Assembly: GCA_913055625.1 (NCBI GenBank) | Contig: CAJXJW010000007.1 | Coordinates: forward strand, 171,643-203,642 | From: an uncultured Pseudomonadota bacterium | GTDB taxonomy: Bacteria; Pseudomonadota; Gammaproteobacteria; Steroidobacterales; Woeseiaceae | Direction: 5' to 3' | Length of the DNA: 32,000 nt | Shown here: piece after piece, positions 6,818 to 24,439 of the stretch | Layout of the letters: the number at the start of each line of letters is the position of its first letter | How positions within the stretch are numbered: position 1 is the first letter of the stretch | Translations under genes and position numbers: made by a program | The notes under the pieces: generated by a model | Database searches by the model: none | Told to the model about the DNA's origin: nothing | What the model saw: the letters and a program-made list of their open reading frames with translations, nothing else

Positions 6818-6937
6818 GGGCATTGCCACCGGCAGTACCGGCGCGCATTGCGACCTGTGCACACCAAAAACGCCACCCGTCTGTGGTATCAAGCCCAGCG
6901 TGATCTGCATGGAGGCCGGCGCGTGCCGGCAACGTGA

Positions 6938-8218: not shown

Positions 8219-8236
8219 TCGGCCAAGGACGCCATT

Positions 8237-9262
8237 ATGAAGATTCTGGTTACAGGTGCCGCGGGATTCATCGGCTTTCACACGGCCCGGTACCTGCTGG
8301 AGCGCGGCGACACTGTCGTCGGGCTCGACAATTTCAACGACTACTACGACGTCCGCCTGAAGGAAGGGCGTGCGAGCCTGCTCGAGCCTTCTGAGCGATT
8401 CTCGATGGTGCGCATGGACCTCGCCGACCGGCCCGCGATGGACGCGCTGTTTGCCCGGGAGAAGTTCGACCGGGTCGTCCACCTGGCCGCACAGGCCGGC
8501 GTGCGCTATTCGCTCGAGAATCCGCATGCCTACATCGACAGCAACATCGTCGGCACACTGCACGTGCTCGAGGGTTGCAGGGAAAACGGCGTCGAACACC
8601 TGGTCTACGCGTCGTCGAGCTCGGTCTACGGCGCGAACTCCGCAATGCCGTTTTCGATCCACCAGAACGTGGATCATCCGCTCGCATTGTACGGCGCCAC
8701 CAAGAAAGCCAACGAGCTGATGGCGCACGTCTATTCGAACCTGTACGCGCTTCCGACGACGGGTTTGCGCTTCTTTACCGTCTACGGTCCGTACGGGCGT
8801 CCCGACATGGCGCTGTTTTCCTTCACGCGCAACATCCTCGAAGGCAAGCCGATCGACGTCTACAACTACGGTAATCATCGGCGCGACTTCACGTACGTCG
8901 ATGACATCGTCGAGGGGGTCGTGCGCACGCTCGACAACGTCGCGAAACCGAATGAAGACTGGGACGCGGCCAGCCCCGACCCGGGCACGAGCCGCGCTCC
9001 GTATCGGCTGTACAATATCGGCAACCAGAAGCCGGTGGAGCTGATGGACTACATTGCCGCGATCGAAGATGCGCTGGGGCGCAAGGCGGAGAAGCGGATG
9101 CTGCCGATGCAGCCGGGCGACGTCCCGGATACCTGGGCCGACACCAGCGACCTGGGCGAGGACGTCGGCTACCAGCCGTCGACGCCGGTGGAAGTCGGTA
9201 TTCGCCGTTTCGTAGACTGGTACCTCGAGTTTTACGACGACGAGTTGCGAGCCAGTGCCTGA
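8237..9262 (+). CDS. NAD-dependent extended SDR epimerase, UDP-glucuronate 4-epimerase-like
   Basis: '[15 protein letters not shown]', '[17 protein letters not shown]', and catalytic Y-x3-K in '[10 protein letters not shown]'. Confidence 0.8.
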
Positions 9263-10877
9263 CGCCTTCAGCGAACGCAAGCTGACTGCCCGATATCCCA
9301 CCGACCTGCGCGCCTGGGCCGCACTCCGCGACCATTTTCGCGACGACATCCGCGGCCGCACGCTCGGCGACCTGTTCGCGCGCGACCGGGGGCGCGTGGA
9401 GCGCTTCACGGCGTCTGCCGGTGCGCTGTCGCTCGATTACTCGAAGAATCATCTCACGGCGAAGACGCGCAAGCTGCTCGTGCGCCTGGCGAAGGAAGCC
9501 GGCGTTCCGGCGGCGATCGAGGCGATGTTTGCCGGCGAACCGATCAACGTGACGGAGCAGCGCTCCGTGTTGCACGTGGCACTGCGTTCGAAGATCGCCG
9601 ACACGATCGCACTGGATGTTCCCGGTGTCCGGGATGTCTGGAAGGTGTTGAGTGCGATGGAGGTGTTCGTGGACGGCGTGCAGTCGGGGCAGGTCGCCGG
9701 CTCGACCGGCAAGCGCCTGACGGACATCGTCAACATCGGCATCGGCGGGTCGGATCTCGGGCCCGTGATGGTCAGCCGCGCACTGCGACCCTACTGGCAG
9801 GACGGGATGCGTTTTCACAGCGTGTCGAACGTCGACGGCACGCAGCTCGCGGACCTCACGTCGGAGCTGGACCCGGAGACGACGTTGTTCGTCATCTGTT
9901 CCAAGACGTTCACGACGCTCGAAACGATGACGAACGCGCGCATGGCGCGCGAGTGGGTGGTCGGCCGCCTCGGCGCCGACGCCGTCACGGACCATTTCGT
10001 GGCCGCGTCGACGAATCACGCTGCAATGAATGCATTCGGCATTCACCCGGAGTACCGCTTCGGTTTCTGGGACTGGGTGGGCGGGCGCTATTCCGTCTGG
10101 TCAGCCGTCGGATTGTCCGTCGCCCTGGTCACCGGCATGGGCGTGTTCCGCCGCCTGCTGGCGGGCGGACGCGTCATGGACCAGCACGTTCGCCAGGCGC
10201 CGTTCGAGGAAAACCTGCCGGTCCTGCAGGCCTTGCTCGCGGTCTGGTACAACAATTTTCACGGTGCCGAGAGCCAGGCGATCCTGCCCTACGACAACCG
10301 ACTGGATCGCTTCCCGGCTTACCTGCAGCAGCTGCAGATGGAGTCGAACGGGAAATCGGTGCGCATGGACGGGCGGCCCGTCCGTTGCCGCACGGGCATG
10401 GTGATCTGGGGCGAGGCGGGAAACAACGCGCAGCACTCGTTCTACCAGCTCCTGCACCAGGGGACGCGACTGATCCCCGTGGACTTCCTGTTGCCGGTGC
10501 GCTCGTCCGGCGCAACGCAGGCGCAACAGGACCTCGCCATCGCGAATTGCCTGGCGCAGGCAGAGGCGCTGATGGACGGCTACCTGGCGGACGGATTGGA
10601 GCCGTACCGCGCGCACGCCGGCAACAACCCGTCGAGCATGCTGCTGTTCGAGGAGCTGACGCCGGAAACCCTCGGCCAGCTGATTGCACTCTACGAGCAC
10701 AAGGTGTTCGTCGAGGGCGTCATCTGGGGCATCGACTCGTTCGACCAGTGGGGCGTCGAACTCGGCAAGCGGCTGGCGAGTGCGCTCGCCGGCGCCGTCG
10801 ACGGCAATTCCCCCTACGACGGCGGCAATGCATCGACAAGCGCGCTGCTCGAGCGAGCACGCGCCTACCGGCCGTGA
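9255..10877 (+). CDS. pgi: Glucose-6-phosphate isomerase
   Basis: '[14 protein letters not shown]', '[16 protein letters not shown]', '[12 protein letters not shown]', '[24 protein letters not shown]', '[16 protein letters not shown]'. GTG start at 9255 overlaps the epimerase gene by 8 nt. Confidence 0.92.
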
Positions 10878-10890
10878 CGGACGAGGTCCG

Positions 10891-12366
10891 GTGAACGAGC
10901 TGCGCGGGCTGTGTGCCAGCCTGTTATTCCTGTTTGCAGCGCCGCCGGCACCTGCGGGGCCCCAGGTCGAGTCCGGCGACATGGCGTTGCGTCACGACAT
11001 CCAGCGACTCGCGGATGCCGGCGTCATTCGCGGCACTGTCTCGACCTGGCCGATGGCCTGGGCACCCATACTCGAGGACCTGGATGCGGCGAGCCTGGCC
11101 GGTTTGCCCCAGGACGTCGTCGATGCCCTGTACCGTGTACGCTCCCGCGGCCAGTTCGAGACGGGGCAGGGCGATGTGCAGGTTACGGCCGAAGCCGGAC
11201 TGGCGAATGACCCCGCGAGCATCCGGTCTTACCAGGATACGCCGCGCGGCACGGCAGACGTACGTGCGAGCGCGGCATGGCACAGTGACGCGGTCAACAT
11301 CGACATTGCCGTGTCGTACGTCGACGCCGAGGGAGACGACGACGTCCGGATCGACGGCAGCCATCTCGGCGTCGCCCTCGGCAACTGGGAGTTCGCCGCC
11401 AGTACCCGGCAACGTTGGTGGGGACCGAGCTGGGACGGCAGCCTGATACTGTCCAACAATGCGCGGCCGTTCCCGTCCCTCGTGCTGGATCGGACCCGTA
11501 CCGACGCGTTCGAAACGAAGTGGCTGTCCTGGCTGGGTCCGTGGGACCTCGTGGTGATGTTCGGATTGCTCGAGGAAGAGCGCTACGTGCCGAACGCGCA
11601 GTTTTTCGGCATGCGTTTCAACTTCCGGCCCGTCGATTCTCTCGAGCTCGGCCTGTTTCGATCCGCCGAATGGTGCGGCGACGGCCGTCCCTGTGGGCTC
11701 GACACCTTCGTCGACCTGTTTCTCGGCCACGACAACCGGGGTGACGAGGGCATCGACGCGTCGAACGAACCCGGCAACCAGCTCGCCGGCGTCGACTTCC
11801 GCTGGACGCCGGGGTTTCTCGGCAGGCGCACCGCGTTTTACGGGCAGTTCGTCGGCGAGGATGAGGCAGGCGGTTTTCCGAGCCGCTGGCTCGGCCAGTT
11901 CGGCGCGGAATGGACGGGCTATCTGTTCGATCGCTGGTCGACGCGCCTGTACGGCGAGGTTTCGGCGACGAGCTGCCAGTTCTACGAGTCCAGCGAGATC
12001 TTCAATTGTGCCTACAACCACAGCATCTACCAGAGCGGATATCGCTATCGCGGGCGCTCGATCGGGCACGGTGCCGACAACGACACGCGGCTGCTGAGCG
12101 CCGGCGTCGTGGCCGTCGCGGCGGACGAGACGCAGTGGCGCGCGTTGCTGCGCTACGGAAAACTCAACCGCGGCGGCGCACCGGACGAATGGAACAGCCT
12201 GACGCCGACGCCGCAGGAAATCGTATCGCTCGACGTCGCGCATGGCCGGCGTCTGCCGTTCGGAATCATCGACGTCGGGATCGGCTACGCGCTCGTCGAC
12301 GACATTGCGAGCGCGACCGACACCTCCGATGCCCGCTTCTACGTGCAATGGCGAAGCGAGTACTAG
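10891..12366 (+). CDS. wzi: Capsule assembly Wzi-family outer-membrane protein, paralog 1
   Basis: Signal-like 'VNELRGLCASLLFLFAAPPAPA' followed by 'LRHDIQRLADAGVIRGTVSTWPMAW', which matches the Wzi N-terminal helical motif. The rest is long and beta-rich and ends in an aromatic residue ('WRSEY'). Start set at GTG 10891, because the ORF-track start at 10684 lies inside pgi. Confidence 0.75.
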   Translation: MNELRGLCASLLFLFAAPPAPAGPQVESGDMALRHDIQRLADAGVIRGTVSTWPMAWAPILEDLDAASLAGLPQDVVDALYRVRSRGQFETGQGDVQVTAEAGLANDPASIRSYQDTPRGTADVRASAAWHSDAVNIDIAVSYVDAEGDDDVRIDGSHLGVALGNWEFAASTRQRWWGPSWDGSLILSNNARPFPSLVLDRTRTDAFETKWLSWLGPWDLVVMFGLLEEERYVPNAQFFGMRFNFRPVDSLELGLFRSAEWCGDGRPCGLDTFVDLFLGHDNRGDEGIDASNEPGNQLAGVDFRWTPGFLGRRTAFYGQFVGEDEAGGFPSRWLGQFGAEWTGYLFDRWSTRLYGEVSATSCQFYESSEIFNCAYNHSIYQSGYRYRGRSIGHGADNDTRLLSAGVVAVAADETQWRALLRYGKLNRGGAPDEWNSLTPTPQEIVSLDVAHGRRLPFGIIDVGIGYALVDDIASATDTSDARFYVQWRSEY

Positions 12367-13856
12367 TGCAGCGCCACACCGCCGCGCTTGCCGCGCTGCT
12401 GGCCGCTGCGTCGTTGCTTACGACGGCAGTCCGGGCGGAGGAGTTCATCGCGCCCGGCGATACGGGCATGCGTATCGACCTGGAGTCGCTGAACGATGCC
12501 GGGGTGCTCAATATTCCACTGACGGCGTGGCCGATGTCGTCGGCCGACATCGCGTCGGCGCTCGACGTGATCGACGAGGCGGCGCTGGACGCCCGCAGCC
12601 GCGACGCGGCACGGCGGATCCGCGCGAGGCTCGAGCCGTCCGGGACACCGGCAGGCGCGCGGGCATACGGCAGCCTGGCCGGGGCGTACTCGCCGTTGAT
12701 CCTGCGCGGCTTCGAGGACACGCCGCGCGCCGAAGGGGAGGCCCGCGCGGGCATCGCGTGGGGTGGCGAGCGCGTGTTCCTGCGTCTCCAGGGGACGCTG
12801 GCCGCAAACCCGGCCGACGGCGACGACGTGCGGCCCGACGGCACCTACGTCGGCATTCACGTCGGCAACTGGGTGGCGTCGGCCGGCTGGCAGGATCGCT
12901 GGTACGGGCCGGGCAGGGATTCGAGCCTCGTGTTGTCGACGAACGCGCGGCCGCCGCCGGGCATCATGCTGCAGCGACGGCACAGCACGCCGTTCGAATC
13001 CCGCTGGCTGAGCTGGATCGGGCCGTGGACGCTGACGACGTTCATGGCCGGCCTGCACGACGAGCGCGAGATTGACGACGCCTGGCAGTTCGGCATCCGC
13101 GGCAGTTTCCGACCGCTGCCCGGCCTCGAGATCGGCCTGTCGCGCGCGGCGATCTGGTGTGGCGACGGTCGCCCCTGCGACGTGTCGACGTTCGTCGACC
13201 TGCTGCTCGGCAATGACAATCGCGGGGCGAATGTCGCCGCGGAGGATGAGCCGGGCAACCAGCTCGGCGGCTTCGACCTGCGCTGGCGGCTGCCGGCGGA
13301 TATCCCGGCGGCCGTGTACCTGCAGTGGATCGGCGAGGACGGCCGCCCCGGGGCCGGGCTCGTGGGGTCGTGGCTGCGGCAGTTCGGCGTGGAAGCCTGG
13401 GGCGAGGCCGGCACGTTGTCGCACCGGTCCTACGTCGAAGTGTCCGACACGACCTGCCGCGAGGGTGGCCTCGGATTTTCCGATGTGAAGCCCGACTGCG
13501 GCTACGAGCACGGCCTGTACCGCACCGGCTACCGCTACGAGGGCCGGTCGCTGGGTCACAGCGGCGACTCGGACCTGAAGAGCATCGTCGTCGGCTCGAC
13601 GCTCCTGTGGCCGGACGGCGACCAGCTCGGCCTCGTCCTGCGCTACCGGGACATCAATCGCTACGGCACCGACACCGGCAGGCACACGCTGTCGCAATCG
13701 CCGCAGGAGGTCGCCGACATCCTGCTGACGCTGGACCGGCAGACGCGGATCGGCCGGTTGCGCGCCGGCATCGGCTATCGGCACGTCGACGGCGCGGCCG
13801 GCGGCGCCCTGTCGCCCAGCGAGGCCCAGGCCTACGTGGTTTGGAACTGGCCCTGA
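12348..13856 (+). CDS. wzi: Capsule assembly Wzi-family outer-membrane protein, paralog 2
   Basis: 'MAKRVLVQRHTAALAALLAAASLLTTAVRA' signal, then 'MRIDLESLNDAGVLNIPLTAWPMSSADI'. The core aligns with paralog 1, for example 'WLSWIGPWTLTTF' against 'WLSWLGPWDLVVMF' and 'WCGDGRPCDVSTFVDLLLGNDNRG' against 'WCGDGRPCGLDTFVDLFLGHDNRG'. ATG 12348 overlaps paralog 1 by 19 nt. Confidence 0.75.
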   Translation: MAKRVLVQRHTAALAALLAAASLLTTAVRAEEFIAPGDTGMRIDLESLNDAGVLNIPLTAWPMSSADIASALDVIDEAALDARSRDAARRIRARLEPSGTPAGARAYGSLAGAYSPLILRGFEDTPRAEGEARAGIAWGGERVFLRLQGTLAANPADGDDVRPDGTYVGIHVGNWVASAGWQDRWYGPGRDSSLVLSTNARPPPGIMLQRRHSTPFESRWLSWIGPWTLTTFMAGLHDEREIDDAWQFGIRGSFRPLPGLEIGLSRAAIWCGDGRPCDVSTFVDLLLGNDNRGANVAAEDEPGNQLGGFDLRWRLPADIPAAVYLQWIGEDGRPGAGLVGSWLRQFGVEAWGEAGTLSHRSYVEVSDTTCREGGLGFSDVKPDCGYEHGLYRTGYRYEGRSLGHSGDSDLKSIVVGSTLLWPDGDQLGLVLRYRDINRYGTDTGRHTLSQSPQEVADILLTLDRQTRIGRLRAGIGYRHVDGAAGGALSPSEAQAYVVWNWP

Positions 13857-13872: not shown

Positions 13873-14628
13873 TCAACCGGGGCCGGACCGCCTGCCGGCG
13901 AGCGAACCGAACACGTGCGGCGCCAGGTGGGCAAGGGCGCGCACACGGCCGAATTTCTCCTCCCGGCGATAGATGCGGTAGATGTCGAGCGACTTGGCCA
14001 GCTTGTTGGACGACAGCGAGCCGCGCGAGCGGTAGTAGGTCGCGTGACACCCGGGGTAGCGCCGGGCGACGGTGCCGTCGCGGGTCAGCGCGAGCCAGAG
14101 GCCCCAGTCCTGCCCGCGGCGCACGTCCGGCATGTAGCGCTTGCCGAGCTGTGCCTGGTCGAATGCGACGGTGAGGCAGCCGATCGGGCAGCCGCGGAGA
14201 AAATCCGTGTGCGTCAGTCGCTCGGGCGCCGACAGGATCCCGGCGTCGCGGCGGGTGGACGCATTGACGACGGCATAGTCGCCGTAACTGAATGCGACCT
14301 GGTGCGCCGCCATGAACGGAATCTGCGAGGCCAGCTTGGATTCGTTCCAGGTGTCGTCGCTGTCGAGAAACGCGACGTAGCGGCCGCTTGCGGCGTCGAT
14401 GCCCGCGTTGCGCGCCTGGGCGGCACCGGCGTGGGGCTGCCGCACGAGACGGACGTGCGGAAACCGGCGGCCGAGGCGCTCGACGACGAGGGCCGTGTCG
14501 TCCACCGAACCGTCGTCGACGATGATATGCTCCGCAGGTGCCAGCGACTGGGCAGCGACCGACCGGATGTTGCGCTCGATAACGCCGGCCGCGTTGTAGG
14601 CTGCAGTGATGACTGACACACCATCCAT
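13873..14628 (-). CDS. Family 2 glycosyltransferase (GT-A fold)
   Basis: 'VSVITAAYNAAGVIERNIRSVAAQS', 'IIVDDGSVDDT', and the DxD-type 'VAFLDSDDTW'. Start set at ATG 14628. The ORF-track extension to 15018 is Arg/Pro-rich and has no homology signal. Confidence 0.8.
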   Translation of the reverse strand: MDGVSVITAAYNAAGVIERNIRSVAAQSLAPAEHIIVDDGSVDDTALVVERLGRRFPHVRLVRQPHAGAAQARNAGIDAASGRYVAFLDSDDTWNESKLASQIPFMAAHQVAFSYGDYAVVNASTRRDAGILSAPERLTHTDFLRGCPIGCLTVAFDQAQLGKRYMPDVRRGQDWGLWLALTRDGTVARRYPGCHATYYRSRGSLSSNKLAKSLDIYRIYRREEKFGRVRALAHLAPHVFGSLAGRRSGPG

Positions 14629-14691
14629 CGATACATGGCTCTCCCGGTTCGGCGCCCGACCGTATCCTATCCCGCCTCTGCGACTCAAGTG

Positions 14692-15738
14692 ATGTCCCCG
14701 GCCGTATTGCCCGACGAGACGGCGGCGGGTCGGCGTCCCGGGAGCCCGTCGACGGCGCCGCGGGATGCGTTGTGGGTGGCCTGGAACGACCACCGGCGCA
14801 CGACCGGCCTGTGCGATGCCTGGGACGTCCCGCTCGAGGTGGTCCGGGCCGGTATCCGGGGGCCATTGCGCTGGATCGAGCTGCCGTTGCGGACACTTGG
14901 CCTGCTGCGGCGCCGCCGGCCCGCAACGCTGTTCGTGCAGAACCCGTCGCTGGCCCTCACGGCACTCGCGGTGCTGGTCCGTCCGCTGTTCGGCTACCGG
15001 CTGGTGGTCGACGCACACAACGAGGGCGTGCGGCCTTACGACCGTCCGTACCGGGCCGTGCGATGGCTGACACGGCGCATGCTGCGCGCGGCGGACTGGA
15101 CCGTCGTATCGAACGCCGGCCTTGAGCGGGACGTGATCGATGCCGGCGGGCGCGCGCTGGTGCTGGCGGACCCGCTGCCGCTTGCCGCGGCAACGAGAAA
15201 GGCGGCGAGGGCGTCCGTCGACGTGGTCGTCGTCGCGACGTACCGGCCCGATGAACCGATCCAGGCGCTGCTCGACGCCGCGGCGGCCTTGCCGGATCAG
15301 CGCTTCGCGTTCACGGGGGATTCGCGGCGATTCGGACGCGCCAGACCCGACATACCCAACAACGTATCGTTGACCGGGTTCCTCGACGACGCGGACTACT
15401 GGGACCTGTTGCGACAGGCCCGGGTCGTCTGCGACCTGACGCTGAAGCCCGACTGCCTGGTCTGTGGCGCTTACGAAGCGCTGGCCGTCGGCAGGGCGAT
15501 GGTGCTCTCGGACAACGTACCGACCCGAGCCCTGTTCGGCGACGCGGCGGTGCTGACCGGCAGCGCACCCGGCGAAATTGCCGGCGCAATGCGCGCGGCG
15601 CTCGATCGCAGCGACGCGCTGAGCACGGCAGCGGCGCGCTTGCGGGACCGCTATCCGGCCGATTGGGACGTCAACAGTGCGCAGGTTCAGCAGGCGATCT
15701 GGCCGTCGTCGGACCGGCAGGTGCAGGGGGCGGCCTGA
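14692..15738 (+). CDS. GT-B fold glycosyltransferase (group 1-like); start uncertain
   Basis: The C-terminal half '..VVVATYRPDEPIQALLDAA..FTGDSRR..LTGFLDDADYWDLLRQARVVCDLT..CGAYEALAVGRAMVLSD' resembles group 1 GTs. Candidate starts are ATG 14635 (only 6 nt from the divergent GT2 start) and ATG 14692. The first Rossmann strand 'ALWVAWND' begins later still. Confidence 0.55.
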   Translation: MSPAVLPDETAAGRRPGSPSTAPRDALWVAWNDHRRTTGLCDAWDVPLEVVRAGIRGPLRWIELPLRTLGLLRRRRPATLFVQNPSLALTALAVLVRPLFGYRLVVDAHNEGVRPYDRPYRAVRWLTRRMLRAADWTVVSNAGLERDVIDAGGRALVLADPLPLAAATRKAARASVDVVVVATYRPDEPIQALLDAAAALPDQRFAFTGDSRRFGRARPDIPNNVSLTGFLDDADYWDLLRQARVVCDLTLKPDCLVCGAYEALAVGRAMVLSDNVPTRALFGDAAVLTGSAPGEIAGAMRAALDRSDALSTAAARLRDRYPADWDVNSAQVQQAIWPSSDRQVQGAA

Positions 15739-16808
15739 TGGATTCGTTGCCGCGCATCGTGTTTTTCAATATCAACGGCTCGGGCATGGGACACCTGAGC
15801 CGCTGCCTCGCGTACGCGCGCCGGCTGCGTGGCCAGGCACGACCGATATTCTTCTCGCTGGCCTCGGCGATCGAGATCATCGAGGAGATGGGGTTCGAGG
15901 CGGACTACTTCGTGTCGGAGTTCTGGTCCCGGGCTCACATCAGCGCGTGGAATCGCGAACTGGCCGTGCGCTTCGGCCTGTTCCTGGAGGAGGTGCGGCC
16001 GAGTGCCGTGGTCTTCGACGGAACCTGGCCGTTTCACGGGTTCATGGATGCCTGTTTCGCGGCGAAGGTGCCGCGCAAGGTCTGGTCGAACCGCGGCCTG
16101 CACAAGCCGGGATTCGCGCCGGTGCCCGTCAGCGAACGCGAGTTCGACCTGGTGCTCGAGCCCGGCGAGATCGGGGCGGCATACGCCGTCGTGCAGGACG
16201 AAACGCCCGGCCGCAAGGTGCGAATTCCGCCGGTCACGATTTTCGCCGGGCAGGAGTTACTCGAACGGAACGACGCCCGCGACGCGCTCGGCCTGGAGCG
16301 GGATGGCCGCTACGTGTTGTTCTCACTCGGACCGGGCAACCTGAAGGACGTCGGCGAAATCGCGCAGGGACTCATTGGCGTGTTCCGGGCGAGCGAATTC
16401 AGGATCGTGTGGGCCTGTGCCCCGATATCCGTCCGCGATGTCGACGTCCCGGACGACGTACTGCCGATCAGCGTTTTCCCCCTGGCGAAGTACATGCGTG
16501 CCTTCGACGGCTTTGTCGGCGCGGCCGGGTACAACGCGTGCTGCGAGGTGCTGCAGTCCGGCGTGCCCGGCATCCTGTTGCCGAACAAGCTCGTCGCCGA
16601 CGACCAGCAGAGGCGCGCGGAGACGATTGCAGCGCATGCGCGCGTCGTCGTGTCGGCATGCGAGTCGAGCGCAGAGCAGGAGCAGGCGCTGCTGGACCTG
16701 CGTCGGCTGGCCAGCATGCCGCCGCCGGCGGGGCAGGGCCCGGATCTTGACGGTGCCGATCGTGCTACGGACGAGATTCTGCGGCTGCTGTCGGGGAGCG
16801 CGGCGTGA
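15738..16808 (+). CDS. GT-B glycosyltransferase, MurG/GT28-GT1-like, module copy A
   Basis: N-terminal glycine loop 'RIVFFNINGSGMGHLSRCLAYARRL'. The C-terminal donor site 'VGAAGYNACCEVLQSGVPGILLPNKLVADDQQRRA' resembles the MurG-type 'xAGxxTxxExxxxGxPxxxxP...DQxxNA'. ATG 15738 overlaps the preceding TGA by 1 nt. Confidence 0.6.
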   Translation: MDSLPRIVFFNINGSGMGHLSRCLAYARRLRGQARPIFFSLASAIEIIEEMGFEADYFVSEFWSRAHISAWNRELAVRFGLFLEEVRPSAVVFDGTWPFHGFMDACFAAKVPRKVWSNRGLHKPGFAPVPVSEREFDLVLEPGEIGAAYAVVQDETPGRKVRIPPVTIFAGQELLERNDARDALGLERDGRYVLFSLGPGNLKDVGEIAQGLIGVFRASEFRIVWACAPISVRDVDVPDDVLPISVFPLAKYMRAFDGFVGAAGYNACCEVLQSGVPGILLPNKLVADDQQRRAETIAAHARVVVSACESSAEQEQALLDLRRLASMPPPAGQGPDLDGADRATDEILRLLSGSAA

Positions 16809-17353
16809 GTCTCGATGATGAGATCGTCGATGTCCGTCGCACGGTACAGCGCCTGGCCGACGAATCGGAGCCCGTGCTGTTGCGCCGCTATGCGCTCTGG
16901 CACCCGGTTGGTGAACGACGAACCCTGTGCCGGCGGCTGCGCCGGGCGCTGGGTCGCGTACTGCGTGCCGTCCGACTGCGTCCCACGGCTCCGGTGGAAC
17001 CGTGGCGCGTCGACCTGGAGCATGCCGGCTGCGGCGACCCGGTCCGGCCGTTCGTCATCTGGGCAATCGGCGCCGACCGGCAGCGGCTGGCGCAGGCGTG
17101 CGTCGGCTTCCGGCGCATGCTGCAGGACTCGCCTGGACGCGTGCCGGTGCTGGTGACGGATGTGGCGGACTTTCGCGCGTTCTCGCGGCTGGGCTGGCTC
17201 GTCGAATACGTGCCCAGGCTGTCCGAACCCGCCTCGGCGTACGGTAACCGGAAACTCCGCCATCTCGCGGCGCTGTACCGGGACGTGCCGGTGCTGCCGG
17301 TCAGCGCCGGCCTGGCCCGCGACGTGACCCTGGAGCAATTGCGGCTTGACTGA
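16805..17353 (+). CDS. Hypothetical protein, small partner of module copy A (no motif I recognise)
   Basis: GTGA start/stop overlap with the upstream GT-B gene. It has a paralog at 19190..19771 that shares 'PVLVTDVAxFxxFSRLGWLVEY'. Conservation between the two copies supports real coding. Confidence 0.55.
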   Translation: MSLDDEIVDVRRTVQRLADESEPVLLRRYALWHPVGERRTLCRRLRRALGRVLRAVRLRPTAPVEPWRVDLEHAGCGDPVRPFVIWAIGADRQRLAQACVGFRRMLQDSPGRVPVLVTDVADFRAFSRLGWLVEYVPRLSEPASAYGNRKLRHLAALYRDVPVLPVSAGLARDVTLEQLRLD

Positions 17354-18416
17354 TTCCGCCGAAAAAGACCTGCCGGTCGTCGTCTTCTTCAATATCAACG
17401 GGTCCGGAATGGGCCACATGAGTACCTGCCTGGCCTATGCGAACCGCCTGCGGGGGCGCGCGCGCCCGGTCTTTTTTTCGCTGGCGTCGGCCATGGAGTT
17501 CATCCACGGCATGGGCTTCGAGGGCGACTACCTGGTTTCCCGGTTCTGGTCGCGCGCCAGCGCCTGGGACTGGGACCGTGAACTGGCCCTGCGGCTGGGG
17601 TTGCTGTTCGAGCACGTGCGGCCGAAAGTCGTGGTGTTCGACGGCACGTGGCCGTACCGCGGGCTTCTGCATGCCTGTCGCGTCTACGGCGAGGCACGCA
17701 CCGTATGGTCGAACCTCGTCCTGTACAAGAAGGACTTCCGCAAAGTGCCGGTCAGCGAGACGAACTTCGACCTCGTCATACGGCTCGGCGAGATCGGCTC
17801 GGCATTTGCCGTGGAGCGCGAGCACCGTCCCGCTCGCACGGTGGTCGTGCCGCCGGTTACCGTCATGAAGGACGACGAGTTGCTGGATCGCCGGTCCGCG
17901 CGCCGTGAACTCGGTTTGCGGGAAGACGGTCGGTATGCCCTGTTCTCGCTCGGGCCGGGGAATCTCAAGGACGTCAGCGCGATCGGGGCGGGCCTGATCG
18001 ATGAAGTGTCGAGCCGGGGCTACGAGGTGCTCTGGACGCGTACGCCGATCAGCGAGTCGGACGTTCCGTTGCCTGACGGAATCGTGCCGCTATCAGTCTT
18101 CCCCCTGGCCCGCTACATGCGGGCGTTCGACATCCTCGCCAGCGCTGCGGGCTACAACACCTGCTGCGAGGTACTGCAATCGCGAGTGCCGACGCTATTC
18201 GTTCCGAACACACTGGTCGCCGACGACCAGGCGCGCCGCGCCGCGATGGTGGCGCGTGCGGTGCCGGCCGTGATCTCGCCGTGCGAGAGCGAGGAGGAGC
18301 GTCGCCGGGCAGTCGATCGACTCGTGTCCTTGGCCGACCACACCACGCCGGACGCGAACGCGGTCGACTTATCGGGCGCGGAACGCGTCGCCGAGGAACT
18401 CCTGCAACTGGTATGA
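17346..18416 (+). CDS. GT-B glycosyltransferase, MurG/GT28-GT1-like, module copy B
   Basis: 'VVVFFNINGSGMGHMSTCLAYANRL', 'ASAAGYNTCCEVLQSRVPTLFVPNTLVADDQARRA'. It is colinear with 15738..16808 over its whole length, with roughly half or more residues identical by eye. TTG start at 17346 overlaps the upstream gene by 8 nt. Confidence 0.6.
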   Translation: MTDSAEKDLPVVVFFNINGSGMGHMSTCLAYANRLRGRARPVFFSLASAMEFIHGMGFEGDYLVSRFWSRASAWDWDRELALRLGLLFEHVRPKVVVFDGTWPYRGLLHACRVYGEARTVWSNLVLYKKDFRKVPVSETNFDLVIRLGEIGSAFAVEREHRPARTVVVPPVTVMKDDELLDRRSARRELGLREDGRYALFSLGPGNLKDVSAIGAGLIDEVSSRGYEVLWTRTPISESDVPLPDGIVPLSVFPLARYMRAFDILASAAGYNTCCEVLQSRVPTLFVPNTLVADDQARRAAMVARAVPAVISPCESEEERRRAVDRLVSLADHTTPDANAVDLSGAERVAEELLQLV

Positions 18417-18422
18417 GTGCGA

Positions 18423-19151
18423 CTAGCCGAACAGCCCCTTCAGGAACCGGCGCCGCGGCTTCAGCGCGGGTAGCGTCCCGGTGTCACCGGGCTTCCGCGC
18501 CAGTCCCCAGCGCCCGTTGTTGATGATATGCAGATCCGTGTAGCCGAGCCTGGGAACGAGGATGTCGAAAACCATGCGCACCGCCGGCGTCGCGCGCTCG
18601 TCGGCGCTGGCCTGGCGCCAGTGCGCCGGTTCCTTCGCCATGCCGGACGCGGCTTCGCCGATCGTCCACGGGAGATCGTCGAAGAGGATCCACCCTCCCG
18701 GGCGCAGCAGAAAGTCCACGAGCACGAAGCCGAATCCCGTTGCGTCCCACGTGTGGCCGCCGTCGAAATAGCAGAGATCGAACTGTGGGCGCGGCGATTG
18801 CTGGATCATTCGGGCAAGCTCCCACGTGTACGACCGTTCCGCGAAGATTGTTTCGACGCGATGGGTCAACCCGAGTCTGGCAAGGACTTGATGGATGTTC
18901 GGGTCGCGGCGAGCTGCCGTGGTTCTGTCGACCGTCACGAGGTGTCCGTGCCCGCGGTCCTCGAGGATCGCGGCGATGTACGCGCTGCTCTTGCCATGGT
19001 AGAAACCGATCTCGAGGATCTGCTGCAGGTCGTGCCGGGACATCACGTCCCGGAGCAGCGAAGCTTCGGAATGCACCATGTAGTCGAGGTCGCCGAAGGT
19101 CGTGCGAACGTTGTCAAAGTTGTCCAATTTTCCGGATTCCTGCCTCTGCAT
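18423..19151 (-). CDS. Class I SAM-dependent methyltransferase (O-methyltransferase-like)
   Basis: Motif I-like 'QILEIGFYHGKSSAYIA', 'HLVTVD', 'FDLCYFDGGHTWD', 'LLRPGGWILFDD'. Start set at ATG 19151 ('MQRQESGKL..'). The ORF-track extension to 19376 is antisense to the next gene. Confidence 0.7.
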   Translation of the reverse strand: MQRQESGKLDNFDNVRTTFGDLDYMVHSEASLLRDVMSRHDLQQILEIGFYHGKSSAYIAAILEDRGHGHLVTVDRTTAARRDPNIHQVLARLGLTHRVETIFAERSYTWELARMIQQSPRPQFDLCYFDGGHTWDATGFGFVLVDFLLRPGGWILFDDLPWTIGEAASGMAKEPAHWRQASADERATPAVRMVFDILVPRLGYTDLHIINNGRWGLARKPGDTGTLPALKPRRRFLKGLFG

Positions 19152-19189
19152 TGCAATCGGGGAGCCCCGACCGCCGGGCCACGGCACGT

Positions 19190-19771
19190 ATGATACGTGA
19201 CGACGAAACCGAATTGATCGAGCGATTTCGAGCGGCGTCGTCGCCCGGTGCGGGCGGCGAGCCCGATTCGCGTTACGCCTTGAGCCATCCGCCGCGCCCG
19301 CCGGGACTGTACTGGAGGTTGCGCTGGTTCGCGGGCCGCGTCGTTCGATGGTTGCGAGCCAGGCGGCTTCTGGCATCGAACCCCTGGCCGGTCAGCCTGA
19401 CGTACGCCGGCTTCGACGCCCGTGCGAAACCGCTGGTCGTCCTGGCAATCGGCACGCACCCGGATGCGCTGGTCGCATCCTGCCGCAAGCTTGCCGGAGT
19501 GCTCCGGTCGTTTCCGGAGTTTGCGCCGGTTCTCGTGACCGACGTGGCGCGCTTCGCGTTCTTTTCGCGGCTCGGCTGGCTCGTGGAGTATCTGCCGGAT
19601 ATCGCCGGGTCCGACGCGGACTACCCGGAGCGCAAGTTCCGCCTGCTTGCGCGTCGCTACCGCGGCGCGCCGATCATTCCGCTGGGTGCGGCGAGCGAGG
19701 CAGCGTTCGACGAATCCGGGCTGCGGGCGTTGTTGATGGCCGGGCCCCGGGGACCGGCGGCGCGGCCCTGA
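19190..19771 (+). CDS. Hypothetical protein, small partner of module copy B (paralog of 16805..17353)
   Basis: 'PLVVLAIGTHPDALVASCRKLAGVLRSFPEFAPVLVTDVARFAFFSRLGWLVEYLPDI' aligns with 'PFVIWAIGADRQRLAQACVGFRRMLQDSPGRVPVLVTDVADFRAFSRLGWLVEYVPRL'. Start set at ATG 19190, because the ORF-track start at 18740 is antisense to the methyltransferase. Confidence 0.55.
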   Translation: MIRDDETELIERFRAASSPGAGGEPDSRYALSHPPRPPGLYWRLRWFAGRVVRWLRARRLLASNPWPVSLTYAGFDARAKPLVVLAIGTHPDALVASCRKLAGVLRSFPEFAPVLVTDVARFAFFSRLGWLVEYLPDIAGSDADYPERKFRLLARRYRGAPIIPLGAASEAAFDESGLRALLMAGPRGPAARP

Positions 19772-19804
19772 GGGCCGGTATCGGCGTCAACGCGTCATGC
19801 CGGG

Positions 19805-20851
19805 CTATCGAAATCGACGCTTCGACCAATTCTCCAGCCACCGTTCGGCCGGTAGGAAGCCGTACTCGGCTGCGACACGCTCGGCATCCGGGCGCAGTTC
19901 CTCCGCGTACCGGGCCCGTTCCTCGGCCGTCAGCGAGAACCGGATTCTGCGGCGGTTCTGGGGGCGAACCGTCCACGCCATCTCGTCGATGCCGAGAAAC
20001 GCGCAGACCTGCTTCATGACCGACCGCGGTTTCCGGCACAACTGGTCGAAATCCACGAGAAGAATGTTCTCGCGCGGGATCCTGGACGCAAAGAGATCGA
20101 GGTGGGCTGCGTAGCGGGAAAGGCGAAGGCAATGCCGAACGCTCCCGGTATCGCCGGTCTTGCCCAGCGTATGAGCCAGATGCGACTCTATCCGGTCCAC
20201 CGGGTCGCGAAGGAGGTAGGCGATCCGCGTTTCGGCTCCGAGGTTTGCAATTCGGGCAGGAACGTTCTTCGTCGCCGGAAGCTTCGCGTAGTTCGGCGAT
20301 ACGTCCAGCGTCCAGGCATGTTTCGCCGGGTCGAAGTCAAAGCGCCAGTCATAGTTCAACGCTGAGTGTGAGTTCCGGTAGAGCCTGGAAAAATAGTTGA
20401 TCTCTTTCGTGAAGCTCTTTCCGGGGACTTCGACGTTCGTGCCGCACAGGGCAGGGTGCTTCGAGAGCATGCGATGCAAGGTTGTCGTTCCGGCCTTCAT
20501 GGCACCGATCACGATGAAGTGGCGGCCGACCGGCTCGATGCCGGGACCGCTGGCCACCGAGAACGCCCGTGCGCCGAGCTCGCCATCGCGTCCCTCCACG
20601 GCGCATTCGATGTGCGTCGCTGCCGGAGGCGTCTTGATGCTAACGTGATCCGTGCGCGGGCCCAGGGCCCGTCGCTCCTCCGCGAGCAGGCGTCGGCGCC
20701 TGAAGTAGCGGACGTACACACTTGAGCCGCGAACGCCGGCGGGGTCGAAGCGAATCTCTACGTGAGCGGCAGCCCTGACGCGGAAACGATTGCTGTCGTT
20801 CAGGGATTCGGTCGCGCTTCGCTGCGGCGACGTACTAGATGTCGAGCTCAT
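19805..20851 (-). CDS. Sulfotransferase (PAPS-dependent family)
   Basis: 5'-phosphosulfate-binding loop 'IVIGAMKAGTTTLHRML' and 3'-phosphate-binding motif 'YLLRDPVDRIESHLAH'. ATG 20851 gives a ~110-aa N-terminal extension and a 17-nt overlap with the upstream ADH gene. In-frame GTG 20557 is a shorter alternative. Confidence 0.8.
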   Translation of the reverse strand: MSSTSSTSPQRSATESLNDSNRFRVRAAAHVEIRFDPAGVRGSSVYVRYFRRRRLLAEERRALGPRTDHVSIKTPPAATHIECAVEGRDGELGARAFSVASGPGIEPVGRHFIVIGAMKAGTTTLHRMLSKHPALCGTNVEVPGKSFTKEINYFSRLYRNSHSALNYDWRFDFDPAKHAWTLDVSPNYAKLPATKNVPARIANLGAETRIAYLLRDPVDRIESHLAHTLGKTGDTGSVRHCLRLSRYAAHLDLFASRIPRENILLVDFDQLCRKPRSVMKQVCAFLGIDEMAWTVRPQNRRRIRFSLTAEERARYAEELRPDAERVAAEYGFLPAERWLENWSKRRFR

Positions 20852-21980
20852 CGAGCGCCTCGGTCACGATGGACCTGACGTCGGCTTCCGTCGCATCGCG
20901 CAGATTGTTCTCTGCACGGCCGGGCGCGAACATCTGATTCGACAACGCGAGGACAGATTCCTTGTCCGGCACAAACCGGGAAACGTGCTTGCTGACGTCG
21001 ATTTTCTCGAACAATGCTGACAGGCCCTCGGCCAGTTCCGAGGGCCGGCGAAACCCGACGCTGCGCGCCAGGTCCTGCAGCCTGCCGTCGTCCGCCGCGG
21101 CATTGAACCTGAGCAGTGCCGGCAGCGTGAAGCTGCAGGCCAGCCCGTGCGGCAGTTCGAAATTCGAGGTCACCGGGTAGGAGATCGCGTGCGCGAGTGC
21201 CGTTCGGCTCTGGCTGATGGCGAGGCCGGCCAGCGTGCTGGCCTGGATCATGGCAGCCCGCGCCTCGATGTTGTCGGGTTGTTCGACGACCCGGGGAAGG
21301 TTGCGGATCGATTGCTGCAGCGACCGGGTGGCGAGTCCGATCGACACCGGCGTGGCATTGCGGTTCCAGCTCGATTCCAATGCATGCGACACCGCATCGA
21401 GGCCCGACGCAACCGTCACGGACTCCGGAAGTCCCAGTGTCAGCTCGGGGTCCAGGATGGCGTGCTGCGGGAAGAGATCATTGGCGGCAAGGGAATGTTT
21501 CTTCTTGCCCGCCCGGTCCCAGACCGTACCGAACGGCGTGACCTCTGCCCCGGTTCCGGCTGTCGTTGGCACAGCGATGACCGGCAGTGCAGGCGATACG
21601 TCGATTCGGCTCGTTCCGGCGAGCAGCGCATCGAGCGCGGTTCCCGCCGGGAGACCGAGCAGCTTTGCAAGCGCCTTGGCCGTGTCGATGACGCTGCCGC
21701 CGCCCACGGCCAGCAGGATGGCCGGGTCCTCGCGGCGTACGCGCTCCGCCTGGGCCTGTATGTCGCGAACGTCGGGGTTCGGTGCGACGTCATCGAGTAC
21801 GGCGACGATTCTTTTCCCGAATGTCTGTTCGAGGTTGTCGACGAGTCCGCGGCGGCGAAAGCCGGCGGAGGTAACCACCAGTACACGCGATTCCTCGACC
21901 AGCCCGGACAGTCGCCTGGCGGCGCCGATATCGAACAGGATCCGGACGGGGTTGTTGTAGGTCCAGGTCTCGTTGCGCAT
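20835..21980 (-). CDS. Iron-containing (group III) alcohol dehydrogenase; by context a phosphonoacetaldehyde reductase (PhpC/FomC-like)
   Basis: 'AVGGGSVIDTAKALAKL' and the metal-binding His-rich region 'LAHAISYPVTSNFELPHGLACS'. It lies directly downstream of ppd in the same operon. Confidence 0.7.
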   Translation of the reverse strand: MRNETWTYNNPVRILFDIGAARRLSGLVEESRVLVVTSAGFRRRGLVDNLEQTFGKRIVAVLDDVAPNPDVRDIQAQAERVRREDPAILLAVGGGSVIDTAKALAKLLGLPAGTALDALLAGTSRIDVSPALPVIAVPTTAGTGAEVTPFGTVWDRAGKKKHSLAANDLFPQHAILDPELTLGLPESVTVASGLDAVSHALESSWNRNATPVSIGLATRSLQQSIRNLPRVVEQPDNIEARAAMIQASTLAGLAISQSRTALAHAISYPVTSNFELPHGLACSFTLPALLRFNAAADDGRLQDLARSVGFRRPSELAEGLSALFEKIDVSKHVSRFVPDKESVLALSNQMFAPGRAENNLRDATEADVRSIVTEALDELDI

Positions 21981-22013
21981 GTTTCGACTGCGTCCCGATC
22001 TCGCCGGCGCGAC

Positions 22014-23138
22014 TCAGAGCCCGAGGCTCTGCATCAGCGCGTCGCGGTTCTCGATGGGCGTCGACTTCGGTCGGCCGAGCTCAGGCCGTGCTCCCTTGTT
22101 GACGACGACTTGCAGCAGGGCCGGTCCGCGTAGCCCGAGCAGCCGTTGCAGCTCGCGCGCAAGTTCCTCTTCGTCCGTGACCGACACGGCCTCGCGATAC
22201 CCGCAGGCCCGCGCGATGGCCGGCACATCGATTTCGTAGCCTACGGTGGGCTGCCCGCCGACCGAATCATGGGCCCCATTATTGATCACGATGTGCAGCA
22301 GGTTGTCGCTGCCTTGCCGGGAGATGATGCCCATGGCGCCCATGTGCATGATCAGCGAACCGTCACCGTCCAGGCAGACGACGCGGCGCGCCGGTTGTGC
22401 GCGTGCCAGTCCCATCGCGATGGACGCCGTGTGTCCCATGCCGCCGACGGTCAGGAAATCATTGCCGGCGGTACCTTTCGCCTGCCGATACTCGTAGACC
22501 TCCCGTGACGCTTTCCCGGTCGTCGAGACGACGACATCCTCATCCCCGAGCCGTTCGAGTACGCACTGGATTGCCGCCTCACGGTTCATCGGGTAGTTCG
22601 TCGCTGACTTCTTGCGCAACTCGTAACGTGCGAACGTGTTCTTGCGCACCAGGAGGGCCACGGGCGCCGCCGCCTCCTTCATCGTGCGGCATGCCTCCGC
22701 CAACACGGTGGTCGCGTCTTCCGCCTCGGCCGGCAAGACGAACCACGGCACCTCCATCGCATCCAGCAGCTCCGTCATTCGGCGTCCTTGCTTGACGTGC
22801 TGGGGCTCGTCCTTCACGCCGGGCTCGCCGCGCCACCCGATCACCATGAGCATCGGGACGCTGTAGACCTCGCGATCCGCGAGGGACAGCAAGGGATTCA
22901 CGGCATTGCCGATACCGGAGTTCTGCATGTACACCACTGCCGGTTTCGCGCTACCCAGGTAGTGCCCCATCGCCAGTGCGACCGCATTGCCTTCGTTTGC
23001 GGCAATCACGTGATCGTCGTCGGGTGCGTTGTCACTGACGTAGGCGCAGAAGTCCTTGAGCAGGGAGTCCGGGACGCCGGTAAAAAAGTCGAAGCCGTTC
23101 TGGCGCAGAAGGTCGTAGATGAGCGCGCTTTCCAGCAT
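22014..23138 (-). CDS. ppd: Phosphonopyruvate decarboxylase (ThDP-dependent)
   Basis: '[34 protein letters not shown]', 'NEGNAVALAMGHYLG', and the ThDP motif 'GDGSLIMHMGAMGIISRQGSDNLLHIVINNGAHDSVGGQ'. The ATG at 23136-23138 overlaps the pepM TGA at 23138-23140. Only the last 374 aa of ORF 22014..24104 are real. Confidence 0.9.
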   Translation of the reverse strand: MLESALIYDLLRQNGFDFFTGVPDSLLKDFCAYVSDNAPDDDHVIAANEGNAVALAMGHYLGSAKPAVVYMQNSGIGNAVNPLLSLADREVYSVPMLMVIGWRGEPGVKDEPQHVKQGRRMTELLDAMEVPWFVLPAEAEDATTVLAEACRTMKEAAAPVALLVRKNTFARYELRKKSATNYPMNREAAIQCVLERLGDEDVVVSTTGKASREVYEYRQAKGTAGNDFLTVGGMGHTASIAMGLARAQPARRVVCLDGDGSLIMHMGAMGIISRQGSDNLLHIVINNGAHDSVGGQPTVGYEIDVPAIARACGYREAVSVTDEEELARELQRLLGLRGPALLQVVVNKGARPELGRPKSTPIENRDALMQSLGL

Positions 23139-24439
23139 CAGCGCGTTCCCGGTATCAGGTCGAGAATTTCCTTGATCGACAGGAGCTGGCTGTCCGCCTC
23201 CGCGGACCGGCCGTTCGTCAGGATCGACTTTGCCGTGCTGACCATTGCCGGGTAGGCGGCACGCAACAACTGGTTCGCGTAGATGACGACGTTGACACCG
23301 TGGTCGATCAACTCGGCTTCCGTGACCTGGTTGTAGGTCGAGGGTACGACGACAAGAGGCACGCGGCGGTCGAACGCCTGGTAGCGATCGCAAAATTCGA
23401 AGATCTCGTCCGGCGTCTTGCTCTTGCTGTGGATCAGGATGCCGTCGGCTCCGGCCTCGATGTATGCCTGTGCCCGGGCTATCGCGTCGTCGAGGCCCTG
23501 TTCGAGGATCAGGCTTTCGATGCGCGCGATGATCATGAAGTCGTCGGTGATCTGCGCGGCCTTGCCGGCCCGGATCTTGCCGCAGAAGTTCTCGATCGAG
23601 TCCTGCTGCTGCGGCACCTCGTTGCCGAAGAGCGAATTCTTTTTCAATCCGACCTTGTCTTCGATGACAGCGGCAGAGACTCCGAGACGCTCGAGTGTCC
23701 TGACCGTGAACTGGAAATGCTCCAGCTTGCCGCCGGTATCCGCGTCGTAGACGATCGGTTTGGTCGTGACTTCCAGGATGTCGTGCAGGGTCTGTGTGCG
23801 CGACGTGACGTCGACGGCCTCGATGTCGGGTTTTCCCTTCGCCGTGGATTCGGTCAGGCTGCTGCCCCACATGCCGTCGAACTCGCGCGGGCCGTTCTTG
23901 CCGTTTGCGGAAATGCTTTCGACGATCAGACCCGTCAGGCCGTTGTGTGCCTCCATTAGCCGAACGAGCGGCTTGACGCGAAGCAGCCGCCGCAACTTGT
24001 TGCGACGCATGTCCGGTGTCGTGCCGATGTCCTTCATGGCTTCGTGCAACTGCGTCGACGAGATGCCCTTCGTGTACGGAATCTCGATAAGCTCGCCGCC
24101 CCATTCAGCGAGCGCGTCGACCACTGCGGCCCGCACGTCGCGCTGGACGCCTTCGCGCCAGTCGTCGCCGTGGACGACGAAATCCGGCTTCAATGCCCGC
24201 AGGTTCGGAACGTAGTCCAGCGTCTCCTGGGGAACGACCCGCTCGACACCTTTCAACTGCTCGACCACTTCCCGGCGTTGCTCGAAGGTCATGTAGGGCA
24301 GGCGCTTGTAGCTCGCGATCGCTTCATCCGTGAGCAGACCGATGGTGACCTGGCCCAGCTTCTGAGCTTCCCTGATGATGTTCAAATGACCGGGATGAAC
24401 CAGGTCTGCGCTCATCGCGACGTACACAAGCTTCGTCAT
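23138..24439 (-). CDS. pepM: Bifunctional protein: N-terminal HIGH-type cytidylyltransferase-like domain fused to phosphoenolpyruvate phosphomutase
   Basis: aa 1-~135: '[21 protein letters not shown]' (HxGH nucleotidyltransferase motif, TagD/ECT-like). aa ~145-433: PEP mutase with the diagnostic '[10 protein letters not shown]' (23633-23662) and 'DADTGG'. The Shine-Dalgarno-like GAGGAAG lies just upstream of ATG 24439. Confidence 0.9.

Follow-up and report, generated by a model that had tools for sequence, protein, structure and literature searches.

Two paralogous pairs of a GT-B glycosyltransferase and a small partner protein in a Woeseiaceae polysaccharide locus: probable two-component glycosyltransferases

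Introduction

Glycosyltransferases (GTs) that depend on a second polypeptide have been described in different contexts. In eukaryotes, Alg13/Alg14 is a split MurG-like transferase, in which Alg14 tethers Alg13 to the membrane. In Rhizobium, PssD/PssE forms a two-polypeptide glucuronosyl-beta-1,4-glucosyltransferase (PMC5748678), and GT1 enzymes with a separately encoded helper are found in the EryCIII/EryCII, DesVII/DesVIII and AknS/AknT couples, the N-terminal helix of EryCII contacting the N-terminal domain of its GT (PMC3391682). The present analysis concerns a 32,000-nt stretch of DNA from an uncultured Woeseiaceae bacterium (contig CAJXJW010000007.1, positions 171,643 to 203,642; in the following, the window, to which all coordinates refer), in which a gene for a GT of the GT-B fold and a gene for an uncharacterized protein of approximately 180 residues (the small protein) occur side by side and in duplicate. 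No published description of such a module was found in the searched literature.

The region is probably best read as encoding two paralogous two-component GTs, each made of a GT-B enzyme and an auxiliary subunit and each taking part in building the repeat unit of a capsule or exopolysaccharide. In the following, the evidence on the duplication, on the pairing of the two protein families across genomes and on their natural fusion is presented, and then weighed against other explanations.

Gene organization of the module

The listing of the window (mechanical open reading frames, ORFs, with their translations) confirmed the four ORFs that a first-pass annotation, made from the letters alone, had described as a diverged tandem duplication of a MurG-like GT-B gene and a small gene. 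With the genes adjacent to or inserted in them, they are:

14635-15738, plus strand: upstream glycosyltransferase, Glyco_trans_1_2/GT4-like (Pfam PF13524, E 3.5e-8), context outside the duplicated module
15738-16808, plus strand: GT-B A, GT1/GT28-like glycosyltransferase, 356 aa from an ATG (Pfam Glyco_tran_28_C, 22.2 bits)
16805-17353, plus strand: small A, partner protein of an uncharacterized family, 182 aa, GTG start (homologs, AlphaFold2 model)
17346-18416, plus strand: GT-B B, paralog of GT-B A, 356 aa, TTG start (Pfam Glyco_tran_28_C, 22.9 bits)
18423-19376 as mechanical ORF, minus strand, likely start at about 19151-19200: Methyltransf_24, class I S-adenosylmethionine-dependent methyltransferase (Pfam PF13578, E 6e-17)
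19190-19771, plus strand: small B, paralog of small A, 193 aa, within a longer mechanical ORF

The upstream GT gene ends in a stop codon that has 1 nt in common with the start of GT-B A (TGATG); the genes for GT-B A and small A share the GTGA already pointed out in the first-pass annotation (GTG at 16805-16807, TGA at 16806-16808), which is preceded by GGGGAG 7 nt upstream; and the 3′ end of small A overlaps GT-B B by 8 nt (TTGACTGA). Through these three overlaps, four genes, from the upstream GT to GT-B B, are chained to one another. GT-B B is separated from small B by the minus-strand Methyltransf_24 gene, and the start of small B lines up in the alignment with the starts of its homologs. 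The methyltransferase gene and small B are divergent, with 5′ ends that are at most about 40 nt apart and possibly overlap. In all four module genes the G+C content at third codon positions (GC3) is 0.80-0.85 (0.80-0.81 in the small genes), equal to that of housekeeping genes of the window, and a scan of 14400-20000 for promoters and terminators returned nothing above chance.

Origin and age of the duplication

The two GT-B proteins are, as had been noticed, colinear, being identical at 198 of 348 positions (57%) without gaps (BLASTP, E 2e-134), and the two small proteins are identical at 66 of 165 positions (40%, E 2e-30), far beyond chance. The likeness of the latter had been placed in a shared C-terminal core; the core (PVLVTDVA.F..FSRLGWLVEY.P) is indeed the best-conserved part, but the alignment spans almost the full length of the proteins. 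The ratio of nonsynonymous to synonymous substitution rates (dN/dS), a check proposed together with the pairwise identities, is approximately 0.30 for the GT-B and approximately 0.50 for the small paralogs; with a saturated dS of approximately 1.3 these ratios are rough, and indicate only that the duplication is old and that both copies are constrained.

The small ORFs are conserved well outside this genome, a point on which their being translated had been said to hinge. For small A, 388 homologs were found at E<=1e-3, many of them from Woeseiaceae or gammaproteobacterial metagenome-assembled genomes (MAGs), and a further search gave 680 homologs of the family at the same threshold. When 1.8 billion representative proteins were searched exhaustively with a profile, 111 clusters (at 50% identity) emerged, i.e. 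a compact family. All names attached to these homologs in the sources are ‘hypothetical protein’. The contigs of three small A homologs carry, in this order, GT2 (minus strand), GT4, GT-B, small (182 aa), GT-B, one minus-strand gene and small (approximately 190-200 aa), and according to tblastn the first GT-B and small pair is nearest to copy A of the window and the second to copy B. In a locus scan with one genome per species (49 loci), the double order GT-B A, small A, GT-B B, small B was found in Woeseiaceae, in one Candidatus Rariloculaceae MAG and in other gammaproteobacterial MAGs. Orthologs of the upstream GT (14635-15738) hold the equivalent position in Woeseiaceae loci.

Neighbour-joining trees of the GT-B and of the small family alike resolve three matching clades (A, B and single-copy), the B clade of GT-B being conserved throughout Woeseiaceae, in whose loci B-type small orthologs are found as well. 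Since the two trees match, the pair was most likely duplicated once and as a block, and the data fit an ancient, single en bloc event in the ancestor of a Woeseiaceae-like gammaproteobacterial lineage. Between GT-B B and small B lies a hot spot for insertions. The methyltransferase of the window is found there also in three other loci (L006, L008, L010), and a 282-aa gene, unrelated to the methyltransferase and with no Pfam match, takes its place in L001, L003 and L005. In seven loci (L009, L013, L014, L017, L018, L028 and L030) small B directly follows GT-B B, so that the perfect tandem was the original arrangement, into which either gene was inserted later. Thus, the duplication first described stands, with the additions that it is ancient and that its copy B has been split by a minus-strand gene. 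Separately, positions 12178-12484 of L006/L011, from a Woeseia MAG, hold the remnant (pseudogene) of the C-terminus of a third GT-B.

Pairing of the two families across genomes

Outside the duplicated loci, a single GT-B and small pair is present in polysaccharide loci of Paraburkholderia, Burkholderia, Nitrosomonas, Accumulibacter, Methylobacillus, Desulfovibrio, Desulfomicrobium and Syntrophus. The association was counted in both directions. With the small gene as the starting point (52 non-redundant loci holding 63 small genes, of which 59 are assessable and the other 4 lie at contig ends where no judgement can be made), a GT-B gene is directly upstream on the same strand in 50/59 cases and upstream with inserted genes in 6 more; the 3 small genes that lack it comprise one next to a broken GT-B (L012) and two true orphans in Nitrosomonas loci (L041 and L049). 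Starting from the GT-B gene, in metagenome contigs with at least 450 nt of downstream DNA, a small gene is found downstream of 58/66 genes (directly in 50, farther away in 8). Among the 8 without a partner, four are of B type with less than 1.2 kb of downstream DNA, where an inserted gene could hide it. Co-occurrence in other genomes, the check on which the pairing was to stand or fall, is therefore found whichever gene is taken as the anchor. The 4-nt overlap of the two genes is itself kept from Woeseiaceae to Burkholderia.

The surroundings of the pair are far less constant. The core of the single-copy locus consists of Ugd, GT-B, the small protein, a 320-aa protein, a 446-aa GT4, a 361-aa Glyco_trans_1_2 protein and a GT2 synthase-like protein; most of it is missing from Woeseiaceae loci, the only trace being weak Glyco_trans_1_2-like matches (34-39%) at other places in L006 and L010. 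The GT-B and small pair is thus the sole element clearly common to Woeseiaceae-type and Burkholderia/Desulfovibrio-type loci. The single-copy operon (L045/L057/L058 and L020-L056) is found in Burkholderiaceae, Nitrosomonas, Accumulibacter, Methylobacillus and Desulfovibrio, and appears to be an undescribed, widespread exopolysaccharide system. In the Burkholderia loci L045/L057/L058 it is followed by a short-chain dehydrogenase/reductase (SDR) and a sulfatase-like gene.

Natural fusions of the two proteins

Three of the 111 clusters of the small family (P0412, P0408 and P0431) are proteins of 483-561 aa in which an N-terminal GT-B is followed by a C-terminal small domain. P0412 shares 48% identity with GT-B A of the window over 359 residues, and its residues 419-528 match small A (35%, E 3e-19). 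Gene calling gave one gene each for P0412 and P0431, whose operons are orthologous to the single-copy type, and in the tree the three fusions form one clade beside the single-copy clade. The fusion loci L059/L060 also contain a GT2-SDR fusion, to which a sulfatase-like gene is added in L059.

The AlphaFold2 model of P0412, computed from an alignment made of blocks of fusions, GT-B homologs and small homologs, has a mean predicted local distance difference test score (pLDDT) of 83.5 and a predicted template modelling score (pTM) of 0.86, low confidence being confined to a linker of about 50 residues (369-420). The GT-B accounts for 68% of the chain, and an undocked C-terminal domain would be expected to give a pTM of approximately 0.65 by our estimate; the higher value suggests that in the model the small core is confidently packed against the GT-B. 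A further protein, P0467 (964 aa), has a distant small-like core (E 8e-4) at the N-terminus and an Alginate_lyase domain (PF05426) at the C-terminus, so that small-like domains may also partner polysaccharide-degrading enzymes.

Properties of the GT-B protein

The GT-B pair of the window has the GT-B fold and belongs to the GT1/GT28 clan. Both proteins pass PF04101 (Glyco_tran_28_C) marginally, with 22.2 and 22.9 bits at a gathering cutoff of 22; a weak sequence match in the PDB to YjiC (E 9e-4) covers the C-terminal nucleotide-sugar region, and one source labels the protein as COG1819/YjiC-type. In the model of P0412, alternating beta-alpha elements at residues 14-340 build both Rossmann domains, i.e. 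a complete GT-B, for which Foldseek found 463 PDB matches at E<=0.001, with CalG1 at the top (3e-14), followed by SpnP, YojK, OleI/OleD and GtfB/D, and with Acinetobacter baumannii MurG at E 3e-12. The designation ‘MurG-like’ therefore holds for fold and motifs and not for MurG proper: the TIGR01133 equivalog gives 16.4 and 15.6 bits (cutoff 250.25), and in structure GT1 enzymes match best. PseG was rejected likewise (TIGR03590, 19.5-21.8 bits, cutoff 153.55; no pse genes in the window).

Conservation of the protein is high. GT-B A is 58-61% identical to the single-copy orthologs of Burkholderia and Desulfovibrio, and about 70 residues reach at least 95% invariance in 128 sequences of the three clades, which is unusually high for a polysaccharide GT. 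Among them are NGxGxGH (13-19), FDGTWP (93-98), LGPGN (197-201) and the C-terminal donor motif AAGYN..E..Q...P....PN....DDQ..RA (255-294), of which the stretch A262-A294 is invariant in the 128 sequences. No transmembrane segment was detected in either the GT-B or the small protein.

Properties of the small protein

The small proteins match no Pfam or NCBIfam family; a PDB profile search gave nothing at E<1, and Foldseek against PDB and BFVD nothing at E<0.001, returning generic Rossmann-like fragments only (template modelling score approximately 0.3). The core resembles weakly the nucleotide-binding halves of GT-A, GT-B and formyltransferase folds (E >= 0.008). In the AlphaFold2 model of small A (pLDDT 82.7), helices at 3-19, 23-29 and 41-55 precede a beta-alpha-beta-alpha-beta-alpha-beta core at 81-165. 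Residues ~40-57 form a conserved arginine-rich amphipathic helix (hydrophobic moment 0.65-0.88, net charge +5 to +8), and the alpha/beta core is conserved more strongly than this helix, 16 residues of the protein being at least 95% invariant across clades (including S127, R128, E134, K150 and Y158) and D119 and D122 nearly so. Two origins suggested by the known systems were rejected: that of a diverged GT-B half, as in Alg14, since hhalign of the profiles gave a probability of 0.06 and E 0.78, and that of a P450-like auxiliary protein, as in DesVIII/EryCII, the size being 182/193 aa with no family match and no P450 among the Foldseek results.

Differences between the two pairs

At seven GT-B positions (22, 85, 102, 106, 119, 142 and 280), the A clade and the B clade have each fixed a different residue. 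At 6 of the 7, GT-B A has the residue of the single-copy clade, which makes B the derived copy (T22, L102, A106, L119, L142, F280). The N-terminal domain, the part of GT-B enzymes that carries the acceptor site, holds six of the 7, and the donor motif is invariant among A, B and the single-copy proteins; the clades of small A and small B differ consistently at two positions only, 143 and 157. The two pairs most likely share the type of sugar that they transfer and differ in the acceptor position that receives it. That they use different uronic-acid donors (UDP-N-acetylglucosaminuronic acid, UDP-GlcNAcA, and UDP-N-acetylgalactosaminuronic acid, UDP-GalNAcA), an idea prompted by the TviB-type dehydrogenase and the epimerase encoded upstream, was set aside because the donor motif is invariant, the changes are N-terminal and the neighbouring sugar-nucleotide genes differ by lineage.

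The surrounding polysaccharide locus

The window, with 60-70% GC, is a capsule or exopolysaccharide locus, in which the module is flanked by the following genes:

6938-8218, plus strand: TviB-type UDP-GlcNAc 6-dehydrogenase (NF011729, 614.9 bits, above the cutoff of 592)
8237-9262, plus strand: NAD-dependent epimerase
9255-10877, plus strand: phosphoglucose isomerase, unusual inside a polysaccharide locus
10684-12366 and ~12351-13856, plus strand: two tandem, paralogous Wzi genes (PF14052), capsule assembly
13873-~14640, minus strand: GT2
19805-20851, minus strand: sulfotransferase
20835-24439, minus strand: phosphonate set, i.e. PsrA-like iron-containing alcohol dehydrogenase, phosphonopyruvate decarboxylase and phosphoenolpyruvate (PEP) mutase-cytidylyltransferase fusion
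24878-26533, plus strand: Stealth-family protein (hexose-phosphate transferase)
26299-28227, plus strand: a further gene of the flanking group made up of sulfotransferase genes, the Stealth-family gene and the LicD-like gene
29880-31208, plus strand: LicD-like protein

The gene at 6938-8218 initially resembled a UDP-glucose dehydrogenase and passes the NCBIfam cutoff for TviB; the trio that it forms with the epimerase and the phosphoglucose isomerase (6938-10877) is kept in L001, L006, L010 and L030. The Wzi genes are a second tandem duplication in the locus, with both copies found in L010 and a single one in L006. In the phosphonate set, the PsrA-like protein scores 366 bits with TIGR03405 (below the cutoff of 424), the decarboxylase 484 and the PEP mutase 411 bits, the cytidylyltransferase domain being the N-terminal part of the fusion protein; the set suggests a C2 phosphonate activated with cytidine monophosphate, possibly hydroxyethylphosphonate, that decorates the polysaccharide. 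The product of the locus is probably a heavily decorated polymer, carrying sulfate, sugar-phosphate, phosphonate and methyl groups. An ORF of 1356 aa on the minus strand (5339-9409), antisense to the antiporter, dehydrogenase and epimerase genes, is almost certainly an artefact of high GC content.

Proposed function and alternative explanations

That GT-B and small protein act as a functional unit is well supported by their adjacency and by the fusions, and the obligate pair of the first-pass annotation is upheld to that extent. The physical complex that it also proposed is an inference, and so are what the helix does, which donor and acceptor are used and whether the substrate is lipid-linked. 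In the mechanism favoured here, each soluble or peripheral GT-B probably works as a heteromer with the subunit of approximately 180 residues encoded downstream. The GT-B would bring the nucleotide-sugar site, by means of the N-terminal NGxGxGH loop and the C-terminal donor motif, and the small subunit would stabilize or activate it, as EryCII does for EryCIII, or hold it at the anionic membrane or at the acceptor through the basic helix. Each pair would carry out one step of repeat-unit synthesis at the cytoplasmic face of the inner membrane, on a polymer that may be further methylated, sulfated and phosphonylated; a lipid-linked route is proposed because of the Wzi genes and of a WecA/MraY-type initiating transferase in related loci. 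A more general reading, namely that the small protein represents a new and widespread family of obligate subunits, either non-catalytic or completing the active site, for GT1/MurG-like GTs of Gram-negative polysaccharide synthesis, analogous to DesVIII/EryCII or Alg14 and structurally unrelated to them, is in our judgement evenly balanced.

Several observations count against a two-component enzyme. Some members of either family are unpaired: three GT-B genes (L078, L099 and L113) apparently are real exceptions, a third, A-type full GT-B copy in L013 and in L051 has no small gene of its own, and the Nitrosomonas small genes mentioned above are orphans, as is a small gene in a further Nitrosomonas locus, L042. 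The adjacent sugar-nucleotide genes vary by lineage (TviB-type here, Ugd in Burkholderia, Glf or adenosine 5′-phosphosulfate (APS) kinase beside the fusions), so that the donor is not deducible from them. In the alignment behind the model of P0412 only three rows are truly fused and the N-termini of the small proteins are misaligned. Finally, fusion and adjacency also join consecutive enzymes of a pathway, as in the PEP mutase-cytidylyltransferase of the window, and the invariant polar residues of the small protein fit a ligand or catalytic site of its own equally well.

The last two points are also the strength of the explanation that competes most directly, in which the small protein has an activity of its own, as an enzyme or ligand-binding protein acting on the same sugar or intermediate in an adjacent step, the two proteins being coupled metabolically and forming no stable heteromer. 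Many of its 16 near-invariant residues are polar or charged, as is typical of a binding or active site, its core recalls, if weakly, nucleotide-binding folds, orphan genes exist, fusions of consecutive enzymes are common, and P0467 joins a small-like core to an alginate lyase and not to a GT-B. However, a conserved core of only about 100 residues is little for an autonomous enzyme, and it has no significant sequence or fold match to any enzyme family; the order is always GT-B and then small, with the 4-nt overlap, across phyla, and the pTM of P0412 suggests a packed two-part protein, which together make this explanation unlikely, though it keeps a sizeable share of the probability. A role outside the active enzyme, either as a transient chaperone or in docking the GT-B to the membrane or to the Wzx/Wzy/Wzc export machinery as a targeting adaptor, is less probable still for the small protein. 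It would account for the conserved arginine-rich amphipathic helix and for the lack of transmembrane segments in both proteins, and a folding-helper role was for long debated for EryCII/DesVIII (PMC3391682); yet the covalent fusions show that a permanent 1:1 association is tolerated and selected, and the alpha/beta core is better conserved than the helix.

Two further explanations concern the nature of the genes themselves. PseG is in the same MurG-like fold class, and weak N-terminal matches to TIGR03590 (E 6e-4 and 1e-4) could be taken to indicate a nucleotide-sugar hydrolase, or another enzyme of this fold, with the small protein as its partner; scores so far below the TIGR03590 cutoff, the lack of pseudaminic-acid genes nearby and the fact that the top structural matches are all transferases render this very improbable. 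That the small ORFs are chance ORFs is a concern in GC-rich DNA, which abounds in spurious reading frames such as the antisense ORF at 5339-9409. Here it is refuted by conservation, i.e. by hundreds of homologs in several phyla, and is further contradicted by GC3, by the confident AlphaFold2 model and by the in-frame fusion to GT-B in three proteins, so that next to no weight is left to it.

Significance

Annotation and expression work usually treats the GTs of capsule and exopolysaccharide loci as enzymes that act alone. If the two-component reading is true, heterologous expression or reconstitution in vitro would fail unless the adjacent ‘hypothetical’ gene is included, and this would apply to the tractable Burkholderia and Paraburkholderia, to Accumulibacter and Nitrosomonas of wastewater and to the Woeseiaceae, abundant in marine sediments. 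It would also give a function worth a name to a conserved family that has no Pfam model, and the natural fusions would possibly be ready-made single-chain constructs. The invariance of about 70 GT-B residues across phyla suggests a constrained, possibly common reaction that is worth identifying. Two diverged pairs in one operon offer a system in which to follow how partner and acceptor specificity evolve after en bloc duplication; should the small proteins indeed be a new subunit family, the Woeseiaceae duplication would provide natural orthogonal enzyme-subunit couples for mapping that specificity.

Comparison with known systems

One close likeness is to the EryCIII/EryCII type. The GT-B is nearest to GT1 natural-product GTs (CalG1, SpnP and OleD/OleI), the partner comes from an adjacent gene, its proposed role is stabilizing or allosteric, and the small protein, too, begins with helices. 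However, EryCII and DesVIII are cytochrome-P450 homologues of approximately 400 aa from antibiotic pathways of actinomycetes, whereas the small protein has approximately 180 aa and no P450 match, and is encoded in polysaccharide loci of Proteobacteria and Desulfobacterota. With Alg13/Alg14 and PssD/PssE the module would share the condition of a two-polypeptide enzyme of the GT28/GT1 clan, the assembly of a lipid-linked saccharide (here proposed), the setting in an exopolysaccharide locus and one small partner thought to give contact with the membrane or the acceptor. In those systems, however, each polypeptide is half of a GT-B, while the GT-B described here is complete (356 aa) and the small protein is an extra domain. 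MurG is similar in size, in the N-terminal G-rich loop that ends in GH, in the C-terminal Glyco_tran_28_C motif and in fold (the Foldseek match given above), and differs in that the module is in a capsule or exopolysaccharide locus and not in the division and cell wall (dcw) cluster, the equivalog cutoff being missed; MurG is not known to have such a partner protein. The module works like the systems in which a GT is joined by an auxiliary protein, yet it belongs to none of these groups: its partner shows no likeness to P450 proteins, its GT-B is a single, complete polypeptide, and the thresholds for MurG and PseG are not reached.

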